Positions 1,580 through 10,208 of a stretch of 10,208 nucleotides of DNA are shown here, piece after piece. Source of the DNA: a virus; UHGV virus genome UHGV-0247914, one strand, 5' to 3'. Each line of letters begins with the position of its first letter. The stretch's first letter is position 1. The position numbers were made by a program, and so were the translations under genes. Under the pieces are notes generated by a model, which saw only the letters and a list, made by a program, of their open reading frames with translations, was not told the DNA's origin and did no database searches.

Positions 1580-1594
1580 TTACCCCTGAGGTAA
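1580..1594. promoter_or_regulatory. Operator-like palindrome TTACC-CCTGA-GGTAA
   Basis: Perfect inverted-repeat half-sites TTACC/GGTAA with a 5-bp spacer. Overlaps the RBS region of the gene at 1232..1576. Confidence 0.5.
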
Positions 1595-1635
1595 TTAAAA
1601 ACCACATAAGACACGAAATCAATAGATCTTAGAAC

Positions 1636-1663
1636 ATTTTATTACCTAGCAGGTAATTATCAA
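1636..1663 (-). promoter_or_regulatory. Putative sigma70 promoter for the accessory cassette, with the operator in its spacer
   Basis: Minus strand: -35 TTGATA (complement of 1658-1663), 16-bp spacer, -10 TAAAAT (complement of 1636-1641). The spacer is the palindrome at 1642-1656. Confidence 0.4.
1642..1656. promoter_or_regulatory. Operator-like palindrome TTACC-TAGCA-GGTAA
   Basis: Perfect half-sites; with flanks aTTACCtagcaGGTAAt. Lies between the putative -35 and -10. Confidence 0.5.
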
Positions 1664-1668
1664 GACGT

Positions 1669-1690
1669 AAAAAAATGCGCTATCGCGCTG
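1669..1690 (-). terminator. Weak intrinsic terminator after the P homolog
   Basis: Minus-strand RNA GCGC-GAUA-GCGC (4-bp GC stem) followed by AUUUUUUU, immediately after the TAA stop at 1694-1696. Confidence 0.35.
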
Positions 1691-1693
1691 GTA

Positions 1694-2479
1694 TTACTTG
1701 ATAAATCCTGCCGCCTTTCCCCGCCTGTATTCCTCCATCAGCCACTGCGCCGGTGTTATTCCCCCCAGGGTAGCGGCGTTAGGCATACACCCGAAACTTC
1801 GCCCTGGTGGATGGTAAACGTCTCTCCCTGTGTCCGGAGGCGTACTCATGGGTTCTGGCTTTGCCTGTATGCTGATCACCGGATCGGGTATCTGCTGTCC
1901 GGAAGCCACCTTTTTCGCCCAATCATCGAGCAGCCTGCGCGCGTGTTTCTCAACCTCAATCTCGCTAAGCTGGCGCTGATACATTGCACGGCGGGTATCA
2001 CATACGACCCAGTACATAACCGGATGTCGCCACGGGAATCTTTCGGGACCACCAGGATATAAACTTTTTTCCTTGCTGTACCGGTGAAACTCCGCCATCA
2101 CATCGTCAATGGTGACGCCAAGAACCATCTTGCTGTCTTTACACCACTTGATGAATTGCCCTGGCGACGGCCAGAACGGAGACTCACTGGCGCGGGCGTG
2201 GCGCATACCAGCAGAAACCTGTTCACGGGTTCGGATCCCCCCTTCGGCAAACGCAGCAATCCACTGCTGTTTTGCAGCGACTTCCTGCTCTGGCGTCTTC
2301 AGGTTGGTTACCACTGCCGCCGGAAACAGTTGTTTCAGCTGTTTGAAAAGGGCATCAACAAGCCTCTCTGCTGACATGTTCACCACGTTGTCATTGTTGG
2401 TGTACTGATGCTCATAACCTGACATGCGAGAAAGGGCTTCTCCGTCACGGTTTTGTATCGCGGTAAAAACGTTGTTCAC
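1694..2479 (-). CDS. P: Replication protein P homolog (lambda P-like DnaB helicase loader)
   Basis: Central region QQWIAAFAEGGIRTREQVSAGMRHARASESPFWPSPGQFIKWCKD matches my recollection of lambda P (RRQWVLAFRENGITTMEQVNAGMRVARRQNRPFLPSPGQFVAWCRE). The ORF track starts at ATG 2492-2494, but GTG at 2477-2479 has GGAGGA 6 nt upstream and overlaps the upstream TGA as GTGA, so it is preferred. Confidence 0.85.
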   Translation of the reverse strand: MNNVFTAIQNRDGEALSRMSGYEHQYTNNDNVVNMSAERLVDALFKQLKQLFPAAVVTNLKTPEQEVAAKQQWIAAFAEGGIRTREQVSAGMRHARASESPFWPSPGQFIKWCKDSKMVLGVTIDDVMAEFHRYSKEKSLYPGGPERFPWRHPVMYWVVCDTRRAMYQRQLSEIEVEKHARRLLDDWAKKVASGQQIPDPVISIQAKPEPMSTPPDTGRDVYHPPGRSFGCMPNAATLGGITPAQWLMEEYRRGKAAGFIK

Positions 2480-3267
2480 AAGAAATCCTCCCATGCTTCA
2501 GGGCTGTTCCAGTGCGGAACGTTGTTATCAGGTAATGTTGATTGCTTCTGTCTGCTAATCTGCAGCCGCCTTGCCAGCTTCTGCTCCCACTGTGCCTGAT
2601 GGTATGCCTTACCCTCAGCCATCCAGTAAATTCTGAACTCTGCAAGTTCCTGTGCCGTTGGCAGACTGTCCAGGTAGATCCCCTGCAATGAGCTTTTCCG
2701 AAGAAAGTCATCTGATGGCTGCCATTGTTCATGCATGACAAATTTGCCTAATTGCCCTGGCCCACCAGGAGGAACAAAGTTATTCATCACGGCGTTGTTT
2801 GCGCCGGGGTCATGAGGCACAGAATCCCCGCTTTTTGTCCTGCTCTCCCTCTCTTGGTTAAATGACTGGTTATATGACTGGTTCTGGATCCCGTTTTTGG
2901 GATCATTCAACATCCCGTTTTTGGGTATATTCCCGTTTTCGGGTATATTCCCGTTTTCGGGTTCATTGCCCCACTCCCGGTTGCCTTTAATGTTCCCGTT
3001 TTTGGTTATATTAAGAGAGAAAACCCGCACTCTTTTTGTCGCTCCCTTTCTCTCTCCGGTATCTGAAATAAGCCCCATTTTCATGAGCGATATAAGCCCG
3101 GCCTGCACGGTTTTTTTATTCAGGCAAGTGTCTTTAACGAGGCGTTCTATGCTGGGGTAGCAGAGGTTATATTCATCGGCTCTGTCAGCCATCGAGAGCA
3201 GTATGAGCTTTAATGATGAGCTACCTGGATCTGTCTCCCAGGCCCAATCTGTTGCATGTCTGCTCAT
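2476..3267 (-). CDS. Replication initiator protein (lambda O-like functional analogue)
   Basis: 263-aa ORF with GGAG 8 nt upstream of ATG 3265-3267. N-terminal region looks like a winged-helix/HTH DNA-binding domain. A low-complexity NGNIPENGNIPKNG linker is encoded by DNA iterons. Sits directly upstream of, and coupled to, the P homolog. Confidence 0.75.
   Translation of the reverse strand: MSRHATDWAWETDPGSSSLKLILLSMADRADEYNLCYPSIERLVKDTCLNKKTVQAGLISLMKMGLISDTGERKGATKRVRVFSLNITKNGNIKGNREWGNEPENGNIPENGNIPKNGMLNDPKNGIQNQSYNQSFNQERESRTKSGDSVPHDPGANNAVMNNFVPPGGPGQLGKFVMHEQWQPSDDFLRKSSLQGIYLDSLPTAQELAEFRIYWMAEGKAYHQAQWEQKLARRLQISRQKQSTLPDNNVPHWNSPEAWEDFL
2889..3012. repeat. Iteron array inside the initiator gene (putative replication origin)
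   Basis: Five copies of TCCCGTTTT(T/C)GG(G/T)T at 2889, 2913, 2931, 2949 and 2994, mostly followed by ATAT. Copies 2-4 are spaced exactly 18 bp apart. Flanked by a TGACTGGTT x2 repeat (2863-2884) and a polypurine/polypyrimidine, moderately AT-rich stretch (3013-3060). Confidence 0.7.
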
Positions 3268-3282
3268 GATTAATCTCCGCTA

Positions 3283-3483
3283 TCAGCTTGAGTGTTGTGG
3301 GGAGGAATTAATCATGATCTGCTTAATCTCTGCCCTGATGCGACGGTTTGACTCCATGGTGCACTCAACACAGTGTCCGTTGTAAACCCAGCGTTCACTG
3401 TCATGTCCGTGCTTACATGGTTTTCCGGTGTAGTAGCGTTTAAGTCCGCGCTTTGCGGCATCAATACGTGTAATGATTTCCAT
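3283..3483 (-). CDS. Small Cys/His-rich protein (possible zinc-binding), in the position cII occupies in lambda
   Basis: ORF track gives 3283..3546. The hydrophobic N-terminal extension looks unlikely, so the internal ATG at 3481-3483 (MEIITRIDAAKRG...) is preferred. Contains C-K-H-G-H ... H-C-V-E-C. Stop is 18 bp before the initiator gene start. Confidence 0.45.
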   Translation of the reverse strand: MEIITRIDAAKRGLKRYYTGKPCKHGHDSERWVYNGHCVECTMESNRRIRAEIKQIMINSSPQHSS

Positions 3484-3564
3484 GGTAAGCCCTGTTATTA
3501 GTATTGGGATTACGGTTATTTTGTGCTGACACAAAAAAAAGATCAACCAGATTTGGTTTTTTAT

Positions 3565-3579
3565 TACCTTTGAGGTACG
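3565..3579. promoter_or_regulatory. Operator-like palindrome TTACC-TTTGA-GGTAc (one mismatch)
   Basis: Same TTACC-N5-GGTAA architecture, just downstream in the minus-strand transcription direction of the terminator at 3580-3612. Confidence 0.4.
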
Positions 3580-3612
3580 AATAGATATGAAAAGACCGCC
3601 GGATGGCGGTCT
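3580..3612 (-). terminator. Intrinsic terminator after the cro-like gene (tR1-like position)
   Basis: Minus-strand RNA AGACCGCC-AUCC-GGCGGUCU (8-bp stem) followed by UUUCAUAUCUAUU, 22 nt past the TGA stop of the cro-like gene. Confidence 0.6.
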
Positions 3613-3633: not shown

Positions 3634-3864
3634 TCATGAGTAGAAGAAGTATGCCAGTTCCGCTTTTGAGCGCAGCCATTGTCTTGTTTTACAGGCTTTA
3701 AAAAGCCCATTCATCAATACCTTACCTGGCATTTTGCGCTTACCTGTTAAGTGAGTCTGGATATAGTGACTCGTCGTTCCGGCTTCCTGTGCGAAGGCTT
3801 CACGCTCATCCGGAGTAAGTGCAAGCCAGTGCTTTTTGAAATCGAAATGTCCGTTATCGCTCAT
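3634..3864 (-). CDS. Cro-like HTH regulator (YdaS-like), first gene of the minus-strand early operon
   Basis: 76-aa ORF with an HTH-like segment (LTPDEREAFAQEAGTTSHYIQTHLTGKRKMP). Divergent from the repressor across the operator region. Confidence 0.7.
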   Translation of the reverse strand: MSDNGHFDFKKHWLALTPDEREAFAQEAGTTSHYIQTHLTGKRKMPGKVLMNGLFKACKTRQWLRSKAELAYFFYS

Positions 3865-3889: not shown

Positions 3890-3918
3890 ATAATAAATAT
3901 TCACCCATAAGGTAACAA
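3890..3918 (-). promoter_or_regulatory. Putative PR-like promoter for the cro-like operon
   Basis: Minus strand: -35 TTGTTA (complement of 3913-3918), 17-bp spacer, -10 TATTAT (complement of 3890-3895). The palindrome at 3901-3915 lies in the spacer. Confidence 0.4.
3901..3915. promoter_or_regulatory. Operator-like palindrome TcACC-CATAA-GGTAA (one mismatch)
   Basis: First of three sites in the divergent intergenic region, phased like an OR1-OR2-OR3 cluster. Confidence 0.45.
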
Positions 3919-3931
3919 AAATCAAGGATAG

Positions 3932-3946
3932 TTACCTATGGGGTGC
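3932..3946. promoter_or_regulatory. Operator-like palindrome TTACC-TATGG-GGTgc (two mismatches)
   Basis: Middle site of the divergent cluster and the weakest match. Confidence 0.35.
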
Positions 3947-3948
3947 AT

Positions 3949-3963
3949 TTACCTGTTGGGTAA
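3949..3963. promoter_or_regulatory. Operator-like palindrome TTACC-TGTTG-GGTAA (perfect)
   Basis: Site of the cluster nearest the repressor gene. Confidence 0.5.
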
Positions 3964-4018: not shown

Positions 4019-4603
4019 ATGAAAAGTATCCAGGACGTCCGCAGGCAAAATCTCAACGACTTGATCGACCGTGAATTCAATGGTGTTCAGACGCGGATGG
4101 CAGAAAAACTTGGAACTCAGGCAAATCTGGTAAACCGCTGGGCTCTTGGCAAGAAGGTTATCGGCGACCAGGTTGCGCGAAAAATTGAAGCTGCCGCCAA
4201 TAAACCCCGTAACTGGCTTGATATCGATCGCTCGCTTTCTCAGGAAGGTTTTCAGCCTGTCGGCCCAAGCGACATTGGTCAGCTGGCAGCTCACAACCTG
4301 GAACGCTGGATGAGTGAAAGCCGCGACCTTTCAACTCAGGGAAAACTTCACCGCGCATCCGGCGTCGCCCAGGTGACAATCAGTCGCCTGTTAAACAATG
4401 AGGTCAGCGTTTCCATTTCCACCCTGGAGAATGTTGCATCCGCATTCGGGCGTCACGGATATGAACTACTGATTCACCCGCACGACCCTGCGACTATCAA
4501 CTATGACCGCTCGCGCTACGCATTGTTACCCGAAACCGAGAAAGCAAAGATCGAAAGTTACATTGAATTTGTCATCAACCAGAACGAAAAAAACAAACAA
4601 TAA
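4019..4603 (+). CDS. Repressor-like regulator with two HTH domains (CI position)
   Basis: 194 aa. HTH 1 is about residues 20-70 (TRMAEKLGTQANLVNRWALGKKVIGDQVARKIE); HTH 2 is about residues 110-150 (HRASGVAQVTISRLLNNEVSVSISTLENVASAFG). No S24 peptidase (LexA-like) motifs were seen. First ATG has no good SD within 5-10 nt. Confidence 0.7.
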   Translation: MKSIQDVRRQNLNDLIDREFNGVQTRMAEKLGTQANLVNRWALGKKVIGDQVARKIEAAANKPRNWLDIDRSLSQEGFQPVGPSDIGQLAAHNLERWMSESRDLSTQGKLHRASGVAQVTISRLLNNEVSVSISTLENVASAFGRHGYELLIHPHDPATINYDRSRYALLPETEKAKIESYIEFVINQNEKNKQ

Positions 4604-4624
4604 AATCATACTCTTCAGTAAGTA

Positions 4625-4650
4625 AGCCGCCTTCTGGCGGCTTTTTTATT
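4625..4650 (+). terminator. Rho-independent terminator after the repressor gene
   Basis: AGCCGCC-TTCT-GGCGGCT (7-bp stem) followed by TTTTTTATT. Confidence 0.8.
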
Positions 4651-4660
4651 GCCTATACTA

Positions 4661-4675
4661 TTACCTAATGGGTAA
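4661..4675. promoter_or_regulatory. Operator-like palindrome TTACC-TAATG-GGTAA (perfect)
   Basis: With flanks aTTACCtaatgGGTAAt; 20 bp upstream of the -35 of the PL-like promoter. Confidence 0.5.
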
Positions 4676-4694: not shown

Positions 4695-4723
4695 TTGACA
4701 TCAAACCAAATACGCATAATTAT
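4695..4723 (+). promoter_or_regulatory. Putative PL-like promoter for the recombination/integration operon
   Basis: Consensus -35 TTGACA at 4695-4700, 17-bp spacer, -10-like AATTAT at 4718-4723. The palindrome at 4723-4737 abuts the -10 and covers the start region. Confidence 0.5.
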
Positions 4724-4737
4724 TACCTCAACGGTAA
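4723..4737. promoter_or_regulatory. Operator-like palindrome TTACC-TCAAC-GGTAA (perfect)
   Basis: Overlaps the -10/+1 region of the PL-like promoter. Confidence 0.5.
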
Positions 4738-4756: not shown

Positions 4757-4909
4757 ATGCAGTGGAAAATCATCAACGGTTGGTACTGCGTTACTGCATG
4801 CGGATTCATGAGCTGGAAGTTCCGCACCTTACAGGAAGGCATTAAGTGGGCTTTCGTCAGCAAAGAAGCTCGCGATGTAGCCAACGATAACGAGATATGG
4901 GAGGGCTGA
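4757..4909 (+). CDS. Small ORF (50 aa), possible first gene of the plus-strand operon
   Basis: ATG at 4757 to TGA at 4907-4909 (MQWKIINGWYCVTACGFMSWKFRTLQEGIKWAFVSKEARDVANDNEIWEG). GAGGT lies 9 nt upstream. Not in the ORF track and not recognisably similar to anything I know. Confidence 0.3.
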   Translation: MQWKIINGWYCVTACGFMSWKFRTLQEGIKWAFVSKEARDVANDNEIWEG

Positions 4910-4911
4910 TA

Positions 4912-5211
4912 ATGAACGTTAATCAGCAGAAAAATCTTCAAAAAATCATGCTGGCATTCGACAAGGACTACCGCCTGTCAGAACAGCTATATGACCGACA
5001 AGTTGAACTGATTGAGAGCATCCGACTTCATCAACTGTCCTCAACTTTCGACGTTGTAACAGGCAAAGGCGTTCGTCAGGAAGTGCTGGAGGCTGCTAAA
5101 GACAGCCCTGAGTTCGAAGAACTGATGGATGCCTACCGGCGCGAGGCAATGGCAATTATAGCGCGCTGGGATCTGGCGGATCAGCTTGATGGACAGAGGG
5201 ACGCGGCATGA
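4912..5211 (+). CDS. Hypothetical protein (99 aa)
   Basis: ATG at 4912 is preceded by GGGAGGG with 6-nt spacing; the track's 4897 start is a less likely upstream ATG. Stop overlaps the next start as ATGA. Confidence 0.55.
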   Translation: MNVNQQKNLQKIMLAFDKDYRLSEQLYDRQVELIESIRLHQLSSTFDVVTGKGVRQEVLEAAKDSPEFEELMDAYRREAMAIIARWDLADQLDGQRDAA

Positions 5212-6029
5212 AACCGGGAATTTATTTCGACATCAGCAACGAAGACTACCACGCCGGTGACGGCGTGAGTAAGTCGCAACTGGACATGGTTGCCAAGAAT
5301 CCGGCGCTTCTTAAATGGGTTCAGGCAGCACCAGAAGACGAAGAGAAAAAGTCTGCACTGGATATGGGAACCGCATTGCACTGTCTGCTTCTGGAGCCTG
5401 GAGAATTCGACAAACGCTTCATTGTTTCACCGAAGTTCGATCGTCGGACGAAACAAGGTAAAGCTGACGAAGAAGCATTTCTTCGTGATGTAGCGGATAT
5501 GGGGATTACGGTACTTGATGCCGAGCAGTGGCGGAAACTGGAGCTGATGCGTGATAGCGCAATGGCTCACCCGGCGGCACGCTGGATGCTGGAAGCACCT
5601 GGTTACTGCGAAGCATCAATGTACTGGAACGATGAAGAGACGGGTGAGTTGTGCCGAATTCGTCCAGACAAATGGCTGAACGAGCACAACGTGATCGTCG
5701 ACGTGAAAAAGGTTGCAGATATGGACCGTTTTGCACGTCACATCGAGGAATTCCGCTACCACGTGCAGGACGCAATGTACCGCGAAGGCGCAATGAGGGT
5801 TACTGGTCAGCCGCATGGTTTTTTCTTTCTTGCCGTGAGCGAAAGCATTGATTGTGGTCGGTATCCGGTACGCGTGTTCGGGCTGGATGCGCCGGATGTC
5901 GATGCCGGGCACGCTCTGTTCCGCCGGGATCTGAATACCTATCACGAATGCCGCATCAGCGATGAATGGGGCGGCGTGGAAATTATTAAACGCCCTGAGT
6001 GGGCACGCAAACAGGATATGTACGTATGA
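5208..6029 (+). CDS. PD-(D/E)xK exonuclease (RecE-like, partner of the annealing protein)
   Basis: 273 aa with RPDKW...VIVDVKKVADMD, a PD...D-x-K nuclease core. GAGGGA RBS. ATGA overlaps at both ends (5208-5211 and 6026-6029). Confidence 0.7.
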   Translation: MKPGIYFDISNEDYHAGDGVSKSQLDMVAKNPALLKWVQAAPEDEEKKSALDMGTALHCLLLEPGEFDKRFIVSPKFDRRTKQGKADEEAFLRDVADMGITVLDAEQWRKLELMRDSAMAHPAARWMLEAPGYCEASMYWNDEETGELCRIRPDKWLNEHNVIVDVKKVADMDRFARHIEEFRYHVQDAMYREGAMRVTGQPHGFFFLAVSESIDCGRYPVRVFGLDAPDVDAGHALFRRDLNTYHECRISDEWGGVEIIKRPEWARKQDMYV

Positions 6030-6943
6030 GCAACGAAATTGCAATCACCAATGATGTGTTGGCTATTCGGGGAATCGATGAAGTTACATGGAGCGCTCTG
6101 AAAAACAGTATTTACCCTGGGGCAAAAGATGAATCGGTAATGATGGCAGTCGATTACTGCCGGGCGCGTCAACTCGATCCTCTTCTTAAGCCGGTACACC
6201 TGGTACCAATGAGTGTTAAAGACTCGAAGAGTGGAAAGAATGAATGGCGCGACGTGGTCATGCCTGGCATTGGACTTTATCGCATTCAGGCCTACCGTTC
6301 CGGCGATTACGCAGGCGCTAATGAACCTGAGTTCGGTCCAGATGTAACACAAACGCTTTCAGGCGTGGAGGTTACCTTCCCTCAGTGGTGTAAGTACACC
6401 GTCAGCAAGCGAATGGCAAGCGGGGAAATCGTAGAGTTTAGCGCCAAAGAATACTGGATTGAGAACTATGCAACTGGGGGGCGTGACACATCGGCACCAA
6501 ATGCCATGTGGAAAAAGCGCCCTTATGCGCAGTTGGCAAAATGCGCAGAGGCACAGGCATTACGTAAAGCATGGCCGGAGATTGGTCAACAAGCCACAGC
6601 TGAGGAAATGGAAGGTAAATATATCGACTCACCTGACATTATTGAACGTGACGTAACTCCAAGAAGTCAGGCAAAGCACGGCACAGCATCCAGCATGAAC
6701 AGTCTGATCAACGCTAAACCAGTGAAAAAGCATGATGAGCAAACGCGTAAAGCGGATAGCCGTGATCCAGAAGAAATGCTGATGGCCTTTACCAGCGCAG
6801 CGATGAATTACAGCACTGTCTCCGAACTGGATAAGGCTTACAAATACATTGCACAAAAACTTTCAGATGATGACGAACTGCTGGCAAAAGCCACCGACGT
6901 TTACAGCGTTCGTCGGGAAGAATTAAACGAAACATCTATGTAA
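6026..6943 (+). CDS. RecT/Bet-family single-strand annealing protein
   Basis: Track ORF starts at 5999; ATG 6026 overlaps the upstream stop as ATGA. PGIGLYRIQAYRSGDYAG and MWKKRPYAQLAKCAEAQALRKAWPE resemble conserved RecT/Bet segments as I recall them. Confidence 0.75.
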   Translation: MSNEIAITNDVLAIRGIDEVTWSALKNSIYPGAKDESVMMAVDYCRARQLDPLLKPVHLVPMSVKDSKSGKNEWRDVVMPGIGLYRIQAYRSGDYAGANEPEFGPDVTQTLSGVEVTFPQWCKYTVSKRMASGEIVEFSAKEYWIENYATGGRDTSAPNAMWKKRPYAQLAKCAEAQALRKAWPEIGQQATAEEMEGKYIDSPDIIERDVTPRSQAKHGTASSMNSLINAKPVKKHDEQTRKADSRDPEEMLMAFTSAAMNYSTVSELDKAYKYIAQKLSDDDELLAKATDVYSVRREELNETSM

Positions 6944-7350: not shown

Positions 7351-7650
7351 GTGAGAAAGTTAAGCCGACTTGAAAAATATCACATGAACAAGGTTTCAAT
7401 GCGCCGTCCTTCAAAGGTTATCGCCGTTACTCCTGCGGCGATAGAGATCGAAAAACGCGCGATTGAAAGAGAGAAAAAAGGGCAGTTCCGCATTGCCGCT
7501 CACCTTTGGCTTCAGTGTATGGATGTTGCTTCTGGTGATGTTGAACGTGCAAGGATCGCGGTTCGCAGGGACCAATGTATCACAAAAGGTAACGGCCTTC
7601 GCCGTGGCGACTATAGCGGCATAGGATGTTGTGGGGTGGTTTATGACTAA
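7351..7650 (+). CDS. Small regulator-like protein, tentatively PerC/ANR-like
   Basis: GTG start at 7351 with AGAGGG 9 nt upstream; an alternative ATG is at 7384. GQFRIAAHLWLQCMDVASGDVERARIAVRRDQC resembles the helical hairpin of PerC/ANR-type proteins, from memory only. Confidence 0.45.
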   Translation: MRKLSRLEKYHMNKVSMRRPSKVIAVTPAAIEIEKRAIEREKKGQFRIAAHLWLQCMDVASGDVERARIAVRRDQCITKGNGLRRGDYSGIGCCGVVYD

Positions 7651-8293
7651 GAAATACACACTAATCTATGCAGATCCACCCTGGGTATACCGGGACAAAG
7701 CCGCAGATGGTAATCGCGGTGCCGGTTTTAAATATCCGGTTATGAGTGTGCTGGATATCTGCCGCCTTCCTGTGTGGGATTTGGCCGATGAAAACTGTCT
7801 GTTGGCCATGTGGTGGGTGCCAACACAACCACTCGAAGCACTAAAAGTTGTTGAAGCCTGGGGATTCCGTCTGATGACGATGAAGGGCTTCACGTGGATA
7901 AAATGTGGTAGTCGACAACCAGATAAACTGGTTATGGGTATGGTACACATGACTCGCGCCAATAGTGAAGATTGCCTGTTTGCGGTAAAGGGAAAACTAC
8001 CTACGCGCATTAATGCAGGGATCGTTCAGTCATTTACCGCACCGCGGCTTGAGCATTCAAGAAAGCCAGATATCGTTCGTGAAAAACTTGTGCAATTATT
8101 AGGCGATGTTTCTCGCATTGAACTGTTCGCCCGCCAGACGTCTCATGGCTTCGATGTTTGGGGTAATCAGTGCGAAGACCCGGCAGTGCAACTACACCCT
8201 GGATACGCGTTGGATATCGGCGGATTAACAAATGCATTCAGCAATGCTCCGCTGTCACCAACAGACAACCAGGGGCGGGAGCGTGCAGCATGA
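7643..8293 (+). CDS. MT-A70-family N6-adenine methyltransferase
   Basis: DPPW motif in [14 protein letters not shown] near the N-terminus. Preferred start is ATG 7643 (GGGGTGG upstream); the track's GTG 7631 adds four residues. Stop overlaps the phosphatase start as ATGA. Confidence 0.8.
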
Positions 8294-8949
8294 ACCTATA
8301 TCAACGCATCAATGGCGCTGACTGGTGCAATATCTTCGTCGTCGGCGATCTGCATGGGTGCTACACGCTGCTGATGAACGAACTCGACAAAGTTTCATTC
8401 GACCCGGCGCGCGATTTGCTTATTTCCGTTGGTGACCTTGTTGACCGCGGCGCTGAAAACGTCGAATGCCTGGATTTGATTACTATGCCGTGGTTCCGAG
8501 CTGTTCGTGGCAACCATGAGCAGATGATGCTGGATGCACTGGTCAACGGCGGAAGTTTCGGACATTGGATGTCAAACGGCGGTGGATGGTGGCACCAACT
8601 TGATTCTGAGCAGGATGTGCAACTCAAATACCTTCTGCCAAAGGTTACCAACCTCCCGATGATTATCGAACTGGTTACCGGCAATAAGAAGGTCGTCATC
8701 TGCCACGCAGACTACCCGCACAACGAATACGCATTCGATAAGCCAGTACCGGAAGAAATGGTGATATGGAATCGTGAGCGGGTTAGCGACGCGCAGGACG
8801 GTATTGTCTCGGAGATAACCGGTGCCGATTTGTTCATCTTCGGTCATACGCCAGCACATCACCCACTGGTGTATGCAAACCAAATGTACATCGACACCGG
8901 CGCAGTGTTCTGCGGAAATCTGACGCTTACCAAAGTCCAGGAAGGATAG
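8290..8949 (+). CDS. Ser/Thr protein phosphatase, lambda phosphatase (PPP family) homolog
   Basis: GDLHGC, GDLVDRG and GNHE metallophosphoesterase motifs. Near-colinear with lambda phosphatase as I recall it, with 18 residues before GDLHGC in both. The track's 8170 start is an in-frame upstream extension. RBS GGGAG. Confidence 0.9.
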
Positions 8950-8951
8950 AA

Positions 8952-10208
8952 TTATTTATTACTGTCTTCCATCCACTTCTCAAACTTCGACGGGGAGAAC
9001 GGAATCAGATCCGTATGCTCCCCGTTAATCCAGGAATCAATCATATCGGCCCACTGCTGCAACATGTAGGCGCGCTGTCTGGCGTATTCCGCTTTGTTAT
9101 ATACGGCGCGCACACCTTTCTGCTCGTGTGCCAGAGCCTTTTCAATCCAGTCTGAAGGATAACCAGCCTCATGCAACAATGTACTGGCTGTACGGCGCAT
9201 ATCATGTACAGTAAAATCCTGAATATGCTCACCATCTTCATTTATTATTTTCACCGTTCTGTCGATCAGAGAGTTCAGCGCGGCATTAGATAATGGCTTC
9301 CGGAAATTGTAACGACCAGGAACCAGATATTCACTTCCACCAGCGCACATCTGCAACCCGACTAATATATCCTGTGCCTGTTTAGGCAGGTAAATAACGT
9401 GCGCCCGACTTCCCTTCATGCGGTCTGAAGGAATTGTCCATGTCCATTTTTTAAAATCTATTTCATCCCACGTTGCATTGGTGAATTCTCCCTTACGAAC
9501 CATGGTGATAAGCACCAGCTTTAAAGCCATTTTCATAGTGCCCATAGCACCAATGGCATCCAGCGTGCGGAAGAACAGGCCAATTTCTTCTGGTGTCAGT
9601 GTTCGCTCTCGTGGTTTAAATATGGCGATAGACGAAGGTTTAATGTCAGCCGCAGGATTAAACAAACCATGACCACGGTCATTGGCGTGACGGTATACGC
9701 TGCTGATGATCTCCCTGGCCTGTACTGCTGTTGCCCGACCACCGCGTTCGACAATCCGGTCACACAAATCACGAACCATTGATGTGGTAATTTCAGCCAT
9801 CATTTTGTTGCCAAGAACCGGAAGTATGTCACGGTCGATCACCGCCTGCTTCATTGCGCGGGTACTGTCAGCCAGGATGACGTGTTTCATATAACTGTCG
9901 GTATGTACCGCAAACGTCTCGGCACCACGAATCTTTTTAATACCGTCACGTTTAGCCGCAGCCGGTGACTGGCCTGCTTTAAGCAGCTTCTTTGCAGCAA
10001 TCAGTTCTTCTCGCGCTTCTGCCAGGCTGATACCGTCACGCCCATACTGCCCGATTACCAGTGTTTCGCGGCGACCGTTGATACGGTAGTCATAGCGAAA
10101 CGAGACCGTGCCTGACGTAAGCACAGCTACATACAGCCCGTCACGATCGGAGACCTTGTACAGTTTGTCCTGCGGCTTGAGGTTTTTTAATTTTGTATCG
10201 GTAAGCAC
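8952..10208 (-). CDS. int: Tyrosine integrase, P4-type; N-terminus at the window edge
   Basis: 418-aa ORF running to the last base of the window. Begins VLTDTKLKNLKPQDKLYKVSDRDGLY, typical of P4-family integrases. The C-terminal half has an R...HxxR...Y catalytic-domain layout (HDMRRT, ALAHEQKG, VYNKAEY). Convergent with the phosphatase gene with a 2-bp gap. Confidence 0.9.
   Translation of the reverse strand: MLTDTKLKNLKPQDKLYKVSDRDGLYVAVLTSGTVSFRYDYRINGRRETLVIGQYGRDGISLAEAREELIAAKKLLKAGQSPAAAKRDGIKKIRGAETFAVHTDSYMKHVILADSTRAMKQAVIDRDILPVLGNKMMAEITTSMVRDLCDRIVERGGRATAVQAREIISSVYRHANDRGHGLFNPAADIKPSSIAIFKPRERTLTPEEIGLFFRTLDAIGAMGTMKMALKLVLITMVRKGEFTNATWDEIDFKKWTWTIPSDRMKGSRAHVIYLPKQAQDILVGLQMCAGGSEYLVPGRYNFRKPLSNAALNSLIDRTVKIINEDGEHIQDFTVHDMRRTASTLLHEAGYPSDWIEKALAHEQKGVRAVYNKAEYARQRAYMLQQWADMIDSWINGEHTDLIPFSPSKFEKWMEDSNK

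Follow-up and report, generated by a model that had tools for sequence, protein, structure and literature searches.

A terminator-type hairpin, a repressor operator-like palindrome, and a candidate replication promoter downstream of the cro-like gene of a phiV10/epsilon15-like prophage

Gene content and repressor of the prophage region

The DNA considered here, termed the window, is the whole stretch of 10,208 nucleotides that was analyzed from the virus genome UHGV-0247914, the features of which are collected in Table 1. The window is classified as a phiV10/epsilon15-like (Uetakevirus) podovirus prophage with an SPC32H-type repressor. Across 2.1 kb surrounding the hairpin which forms the subject of this study, it shares 98.3% identity with phiV10 and 97 to 99% identity with other Uetakevirus phages, and its top match (99.1%) is a prophage adjoining guaA in Escherichia coli IAI39. 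The prophage region was found in 564 of 5,426 complete E. coli genomes (approximately 10%).

The cro-like gene, a homologue of phiV10 gp41, which is labeled "hypothetical protein" in the phiV10 record, is the first gene transcribed from PR and the only one ahead of the hairpin and is divergent from the repressor gene. Its stop codon is separated by 21 nt from the start of the hairpin, which lies on the same strand, and the hairpin is followed by the gp42-like gene (the phiV10 gp42 homologue and the first gene past the terminator) and by the O-like and P genes. The interior of the O-like initiator gene harbors 18-bp repeats (2.8 copies) at positions 2913 to 2962 and 12-bp repeats (2.4 copies) at positions 2855 to 2883, which code for a repeated NGNIPENG peptide and are probably origin iterons.

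Elsewhere in the window, a plus-strand open reading frame (ORF) of 259 amino acids with a metallophosphoesterase-like motif (GDLHG...GDLVDRG) is located at positions 8170 to 8949, between the methyltransferase and integrase genes, where phiV10 and IAI39 carry a small DUF1382 gene; the ORF has the appearance of an accessory gene that was inserted. The exonuclease (5208 to 6029) and RecT/Bet (5999 to 6943) functions are encoded by separate, overlapping ORFs, which are represented in the original phiV10 record by a single fused "recET" gene, gp37.

The product of the repressor gene matches PDB entry 5d50_A ("Repressor") over its full length (residues 1 to 190; E = 4e-42). The SPC32H Rep protein is a DNA-binding tetramer with two DNA-binding units, which is disassembled/inactivated by the antirepressor (PMC9638917). 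Repressor and antirepressor function has been shown by overexpression in the relative ZX5 (PMC9782041), whose immunity region is 98.7% identical to that of the window; terminators are unmentioned in the ZX5 paper, and a literature search found no Uetakevirus transcriptome study.

Table 1. Features of the window, with coordinates, strand, and the basis of each assignment
Feature	Position	Strand	Basis or description
DUF1064 protein	1232-1576	minus	ORF listing, Pfam, PHROGs
Second operator, over DUF1064 start	1580-1594		Motif scan
Promoter TTGATA-16-TAAAAT	1663..1636	minus	Top PWM match of window; operator 1642-1656 fills spacer
Small terminator GCGC-GAUA-GCGC + U7, after P gene	1688..1669	minus	Terminator annotated here in phiV10
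Lambda-P-like helicase loader	1694-2494	minus	Pfam Phage_lambda_P; PHROG P-like helicase loader
DnaT/O-like initiator	2476-3267	minus	Pfam DnaT, HTH_36; PHROG replication initiation protein
gp42-like small zinc-ribbon-type protein	3283-3483	minus	phrog_1081 (unknown function), E = 7.7e-43
Candidate sigma-70 promoter for gp42-O-P	3518..3546	minus	-35 TTGATC 3546..3541, 17-nt spacer, -10 CAAAAT 3523..3518
AT-rich conserved non-coding island UAAAAAACCAAAUCUGGUUGAUCUUUUUUUU	3531..3563	minus	Alignment; long invariant runs
Repressor-operator-like palindrome TTACCTTTGAGGTAC	3564..3578	no strand	One mismatch to TTACC-N5-GGTAA; starts 15 bp past stem
Putative intrinsic terminator	3584..3612	minus	8-bp GC-rich stem 3612..3605 / 3600..3593, tetraloop AUCC, tail UUUCAUAUC
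cro-like gene (phiV10 gp41 homologue)	3634-3864	minus	phrog_35 "transcriptional repressor", E = 5.6e-13
PR TTGTTA-17-TATTAT	3918..3890	minus	Promoter scans
OR operators	3901-3915, 3932-3946, 3949-3963	no strand	Motif scans
Repressor gene, two HTH domains, SPC32H Rep family	4019-4603	plus	Pfam HTH_3
Repressor-gene intrinsic terminator	4624-4643 + U6	plus	Folding, strict scan; annotated in phiV10
OL operators	4661-4675, 4723-4737 (62 bp apart)	plus-strand region	Flank PL
PL TTGACA-17-AATTAT	4695-4723	plus	Promoter scans
Early-left operon	from 4757	plus	ORF listing, Pfam, PHROGs
First two PL genes (phiV10 gp39, gp38 homologues)	4757-4909, 4912-5211	plus	phrog_898, phrog_856, unknown function
P4-type integrase	8952-10208	minus	ORF listing, Pfam, PHROGs

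Structure and conservation of the hairpin

On the minus strand, the hairpin is formed by a GACCGCC-AUCC-GGCGGUC stem-loop followed by UUUUCAUAU, the entire structure at 3612..3593 reading AGACCGCC-AUCC-GGCGGUCU and continuing into UUUCAUAUCU. Its minimum free energy structure comprises 8 bp, six of which are GC pairs, at -15.0 kcal/mol, and the 81-nt context of the hairpin folds better than 198 of 200 shuffles (z = -2.7). A generic terminator scan of the window revealed no enrichment, with 10 sites found versus 10.1 expected. A strict scan, which required a perfect 7-bp stem with at least five GC pairs, a loop of 3 to 8 nt, and at least four T residues in the first 5 nt, returned two sites only in the whole window, namely, the cro hairpin and the repressor-gene terminator; applied to 300 dinucleotide shuffles, it returned a mean of 0.037 sites, with any site at all in 10 of the 300.

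Sequence, fold, and strict scan are therefore in agreement that a terminator-type hairpin is located between the cro-like and replication genes, as had been claimed by an earlier, sequence-only reading of this DNA. The hairpin displays the stem, the loop, and the U-rich tract directly 3′ that characterize intrinsic terminators, is positioned just past a stop codon, and has retained its structure in evolution. Because no T run is present on the plus strand, termination is expected in one direction only. The description of the terminator as "strong" in the earlier reading holds for the stem but is overstated for the element as a whole, as the U tract, UUUUCAUAU, is short and interrupted (four consecutive U residues and six U residues among nine), whereas the repressor terminator possesses UUUUUUAUU, a run of six. 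From general knowledge of terminators, a moderate U tract of this kind is expected to permit some read-through.

The same hairpin is annotated in phiV10 (DQ126339.2/NC_007804.2) as a "putative rho-independent terminator" at positions 33078 to 33100, between gp41 and gp42, which corresponds to positions 3590 to 3612 of the window, and the finding is therefore already known. The two copies occupy homologous positions in a region of 98% identity with the same flanking genes, and nothing substantive differs between them. It is probable that the cro hairpin ends the PR-cro transcript in vivo.

Relatives of the locus were gathered via the gp42-like protein, six annotated phage records, and a DNA pattern of the downstream block; a scan of genome contigs with the DNA pattern was too degenerate, yielding 120 matches, mostly attributable to chance, among which four Enterobacterales loci were informative. 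Across 205 related loci, 32 distinct versions of the hairpin were recorded, every one of which possesses a stem of 6 to 9 bp. Changes within the stem are confined to wobble-compatible transitions, and at least 17 sequences occupy the loop (positions 3601 to 3604 of the window), a freedom of variation which speaks against a hairpin that, like boxB, binds a protein. Within the E. coli clade, the hairpin sequence is essentially identical.

A nearly invariant U-rich tail directly follows the stem in 160 of the 205 loci, including the window. No U run is present in the other 45, which belong to the Salmonella (epsilon15 and SPN1S) and Klebsiella clades and in which the stem is followed by UCCUUCCUGC or UCCUGCCUCU; the epsilon15 record contains no terminator annotation after the cro-like gene. 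Retention of the stem without a U run suggests that, in some clades, the hairpin may be conserved for a role other than intrinsic termination, and there are hints of a Rho-dependent or nonterminator role in the Salmonella and Klebsiella clades. The RNA around the hairpin in these relatives is C-rich and G-poor. A Scandinavium prophage, whose cro homologue and repressor are 67% and 41% identical, respectively, to those of the window, carries a different, fully compensated stem (GCCACC/GGUGGC) and a longer U tract.

Repressor sites and a candidate promoter beyond the hairpin

The palindrome which the sequence-only reading had placed at 3565 to 3579 is real, although its position is 3564 to 3578 (TTACCTTTGAGGTAC), and it is identified by its match to the consensus as a copy of the repressor operator motif rather than as a promoter in itself. 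Allowing one mismatch at most, TTACC-N5-GGTAA occurs at seven sites in the window, all of which are intergenic, compared to an expectation of 0.14; the sites start at positions 3901 and 3949 (OR), 4661 and 4723 (OL), 1580 and 1642 (the gap between the P and DUF1064 genes), and 3564. The complete phiV10 genome contains 14 copies of the motif (0.63 expected), mostly in intergenic DNA and never deep inside a gene, two of them falling in the initial 80 bp of the small-terminase gene. An operator lies 11 to 90 bp beyond five of the eight annotated phiV10 terminators. Operator motifs at phiV10 positions 87 to 119, 3252, 20497, 20877, 24692, and 26870 are located ahead of the terminase, head, tail fiber, and integrase genes, the antirepressor region, and the lysis cassette. 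Given operators ahead of late and accessory operons, such operons appear to be directly controlled by Rep.

The operator consensus of the window is the same as that of epsilon15, for which the RefSeq record annotates ATTACC-N5-GGTAAT as "protein_bind repressor" at seven positions in several genome regions. The annotated epsilon15 sites precede several operons, and the site past the cro hairpin, which is degenerate in that phage (ACACC-N5-GGTAA), is not among them. At the equivalent position, ACC-N5-GGTAAT is present in each of the four clades compared (E. coli, Enterobacter, Salmonella, and Klebsiella) and in Pseudocitrobacter; the left half-site is degenerate in some lineages and lost in Scandinavium. 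Rep is predicted to bind the operator-like site at 3564 to 3578.

Two operator pairs of the window, 4661/4723 and 1580/1642 (31953/32015 and 35070/35132 in phiV10), are spaced by exactly 62 bp from start to start, which fits the bridging of two sites by one Rep tetramer; no second operator is found at this distance from the one at 3564. A 25-nt direct repeat of 72% identity (AACCA.AT...ATTACCT) links positions 3545 to 3569, in the island, with positions 4704 to 4728, comprising PL spacer, -10 hexamer, and operator, and may represent the relic of a duplicated regulatory region or a chance similarity.

The operator is adjoined by the conserved AT-rich island. Between positions 3531 and 3575, mean pairwise identity among four clade representatives is 0.71 to 0.83, versus 0.30 to 0.44 in the flanking noncoding DNA, and the island includes a GATC site and an inverted repeat, AACCA-N4-TGGTT (3545 to 3558), by which the candidate -35 hexamer is overlapped. 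The candidate sigma-70 promoter TTGATC-17-CAAAAT, whose -35 hexamer closes the island, has a predicted start near 3511 and a -10 hexamer approximately 35 nt ahead of the gp42 start codon. It matches the consensus at 8 of 12 positions, below the 9/12 threshold of a standard scan, although both key residues, A(-11) and T(-7), are present, and a rough position weight matrix (PWM) with frequencies supplied by us ranks it 17th in the window and 70th in phiV10; its score alone is thus unremarkable. In all 116 unique relatives, nAAAAT is found 15 to 18 nt past TTGA(T/C)C, across at least eight unrelated versions of the spacer, although the -35 hexamer formed part of the pattern by which most relatives were fetched, and only those collected via the protein provide independent evidence of its conservation.

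For ZX5, TL-2011b, and their relatives, homology to the window at the DNA level ends right past TTGATC (approximately position 3541), beyond which a different gp42/replication module of 60% protein identity is present. This mosaic junction falls between the two hexamers, both of which are retained, and the end of homology past TTGATC implies that the immunity module carries the terminator and operator with it. Counted from the predicted start, the operator occupies approximately -53 to -67, which is not a classical repressing position.

TTGATC-17-CAAAAT is proposed to represent a separate promoter for the gp42-O-P replication genes, which would have a Rep site at about -60 and is predicted to fire. 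As sources of replication gene expression, the sequence-only reading had offered terminator leakiness, a downstream promoter near the palindrome, and an unrecognized antitermination mechanism. The second of these options is the best supported of the three, with the amendment that the palindrome is assigned as an operator and the candidate promoter lies 18 to 55 bp further downstream. The best promoter matches of the window are those at its two other terminator-operator junctions (PL and 1663..1636), together with PR, and in epsilon15, a repressor site is annotated at the position equivalent to the 1580..1688 junction.

Other candidates in this region were rejected. The best promoter overlapping the palindrome, TTCATA-17-GGTAAT, is 275th in rank and has no A at -11; for a leftward (plus-strand), PRE-like promoter, the island offers no credible hexamers, the plus-strand match at 3477 to 3504 being located in a poorly conserved stretch; and AACCA-N4-TGGTT plus U8, considered as a second terminator, has too weak a stem and a displaced U run. 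The T run in the spacer (3524 to 3540) differs in length between E. coli prophages that are otherwise near-identical (T7 to T9), giving spacers of 16 to 18 nt, a variation which could modulate promoter strength or could represent homopolymer sequencing error. The GATC (Dam-type) site, which overlaps the candidate -35 hexamer (3541 to 3546), is conserved in almost all relatives, one variant reading TTGACC, and the phage encodes an MT-A70 adenine methyltransferase at positions 7631 to 8293.

Expression of the replication genes and comparison with known systems

The junction consists, in order, of the cro stop codon, the GC-rich hairpin with its short U tract, the predicted Rep operator, the AT-rich island, TTGATC-17-CAAAAT, and the gp42, O-like, and P genes. 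The explanation that we favor, and regard as probably correct, is that the cro hairpin acts as a Rho-independent terminator of the PR-cro unit and that the replication genes are transcribed from their own, Rep-switched promoter, with no N-like factor being needed. Upon removal of Rep by the antirepressor, gp42-O-P would be transcribed from this promoter, to which leakage of PR transcription through the imperfect U tract would add. A lambda-type antitermination cascade would be absent from the phiV10/epsilon15 family, in which predicted Rep operators are positioned at most operon starts, often directly past a terminator; from this observed placement, the terminators would appear to insulate separately repressed units. 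The missing lambda-style antiterminator is then no puzzle, because operators, several of them with promoter-like sequences, start most gene blocks.

The best placed of the alternatives, although unlikely, is that the hairpin is only a leaky attenuator, that gp42-O-P is expressed solely through PR read-through, and that the island has a role other than that of a promoter, such as a protein-binding site or a recombination linker. The short, interrupted tract UUUUCAUAU would lead to incomplete termination, read-through is probably unimpeded in relatives that have no U run, the candidate promoter resembles the consensus only weakly, and the island coincides with a mosaic recombination joint. A linker would be hard to reconcile, however, with the maintenance of two hexamers at promoter spacing over at least eight unrelated spacers in 116 sequences, which is typical of promoters, and clear promoters are present at both other terminator-operator junctions of the window.

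In mycobacteriophage L5, intergenic repressor sites termed stoperators block elongation; these sites are asymmetric and act in an orientation-dependent manner. The phiV10 genome resembles that of L5 in its many intergenic repressor sites genome-wide, some of them in transcribed paths, but the sites described here, unlike those of L5, are palindromic, and most of them are found within or beside promoter-like sequences. It is doubtful, and somewhat less likely than attenuation alone, that Rep bound at 3564 to 3578 acts with the terminator to silence the replication genes in the lysogen, as a stoperator-like roadblock to polymerases that have escaped the terminator or by looping to OR-bound Rep. 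The operator is located 15 bp past the stem, within the path transcribed from PR, four other phiV10 terminators are likewise followed by operators, and the use of repressor sites in this way is known from L5; nevertheless, the palindromic site has no orientation bias and is degenerate in several lineages, and as PR is itself operator controlled, there would be little to block in the lysogen. In favor of this reading, the SPC32H-type Rep is tetrameric and has two DNA-binding units (PMC9638917). A roadblock can coexist with the explanation by a dedicated replication promoter.

It is improbable that the hairpin serves mainly as an RNA 3′-end or stability element, or as part of a Rho-dependent terminator, with the U tract of the E. 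coli clade being secondary. Such a role would agree with the retention of the stem ahead of UCCUUCCUGC or UCCUGCCUCU in Salmonella and Klebsiella and with the C-rich sequence which extends from the cro stop codon to the operator in all clades, the hairpin being placed between C-rich, G-poor segments much as boxB is placed between rutA and rutB in lambda tR1, but it does not readily accommodate the nearly invariant U-rich tail directly past the stem in 160 of 205 loci, among them the window, nor the independent Scandinavium lineage, in which a different stem is combined with an even better U tract. A related and more speculative possibility, to which we assign slightly less weight still, is that the hairpin is a conserved early-right RNA element for which the U tract is dispensable and that, together with the solitary Rep site, it imposes a combined RNA/DNA checkpoint on the replication genes, for instance by a roadblock, by looping of the Rep tetramer to OR, or by a phage factor that acts on the hairpin. 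The function of the hairpin may not need the U tract, as the stem persists in 45 Salmonella and Klebsiella loci that have no such tract.

The preferred explanation, termination followed by a dedicated promoter, dispenses with antitermination, signatures of which were sought throughout the window. The first two PL genes had been described as not encoding arginine-rich, N-like proteins, and this was borne out: their products have pI values of 6.1 and 4.7, have no Pfam match and no similarity to any PDB sequence, and fall into PHROGs of unknown function, and a scan for arginine-rich 12-mers identified none in any real reading frame of the window. A single-sequence AF2 model of the gp38-like protein is an acidic helical hairpin (mean pLDDT, 69.5) with no Foldseek match. 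No member of an N or Q family was detected among the approximately 20 proteins screened by Pfam and PHROGs, the other phiV10 proteins being judged by annotation only; phiV10 gp55 matches phrog_536 ("transcriptional regulator"). The reported lack of a clear boxA or boxB was likewise confirmed: boxA sequences with one mismatch at most are at chance level in the window (5 found versus 6.15 expected) and misplaced, with none in the early 5′ leaders, which are only about 19 and 27 nt long (approximately 27 nt for PL), and the operators are the only repeats common to the PL and PR transcripts. An N-like protein with matching nut sites, the discovery of which the sequence-only reading had named as contrary to its view, was not found by Pfam, PHROG, motif, or PDB searches.

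An Rfam scan of the whole window, at E values up to 5, returned three chance-level matches, none of which is near the hairpin. For put RNA, annotation is missing in the HK022 record and a repeat search of HK022 found nothing; a putL/putR-like pair was therefore located by blastn and used for a two-sequence covariance model with boundaries set by us, which recovered both HK022 copies (E of ~1e-25) and nothing in the window or phiV10 at E values up to 10.

An unrecognized antitermination mechanism, by which a phage protein (gp38, gp39, a PerC-like protein, or a gp55-like protein) or a cis-acting RNA would carry PR transcription past the hairpin, is highly improbable, and nothing requires it, for although several early proteins are of no known function, the whole right arm is codirectional with several terminators, and absence is weak evidence for small, fast-evolving factors, there is no arginine-rich motif, N/Q family member among the proteins screened, boxA enrichment, shared leader sequence, or put or Rfam match, the early leaders are very short, and the hairpin loops vary, unlike boxB.

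The sequence-only reading had likened the hairpin to tR1 of lambda. The parallel is valid for position, since the hairpin, like the tR1/nutR region, lies right past a cro-type gene and ahead of replication genes, but the lambda frame is misleading for a phiV10/epsilon15-like podovirus prophage. Lambda tR1 is Rho dependent rather than intrinsic, and its hairpin, boxB, binds N; the window, in contrast, possesses a hairpin with a U tract and a free loop, and no boxA, nutL counterpart, or N-like protein was found. On the features tested, the cro hairpin is assigned to neither the lambda N/nut nor the put system and would function as an ordinary intrinsic terminator at the boundary between operons.

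Intrinsic terminators past cro-type genes are routine, and the hairpin is accordingly of little weight as a discovery. As the window is a prophage copy of a phiV10-type region whose terminator was already annotated, what is new here is confined to the assignment of the palindrome as an operator and the candidate replication promoter, both of which are adjacent to the terminator and unannotated in the phiV10 record. The inferred replication promoter and the operator represent small, testable additions to the annotation of these phages. More broadly, the lambda frame should not be applied to prophages of the phiV10/epsilon15 family, which are present in approximately 10% of complete E. coli genomes: their operons appear to be directly controlled by a tetrameric repressor with operators past the terminators, and an N-type antitermination step is therefore not to be expected.
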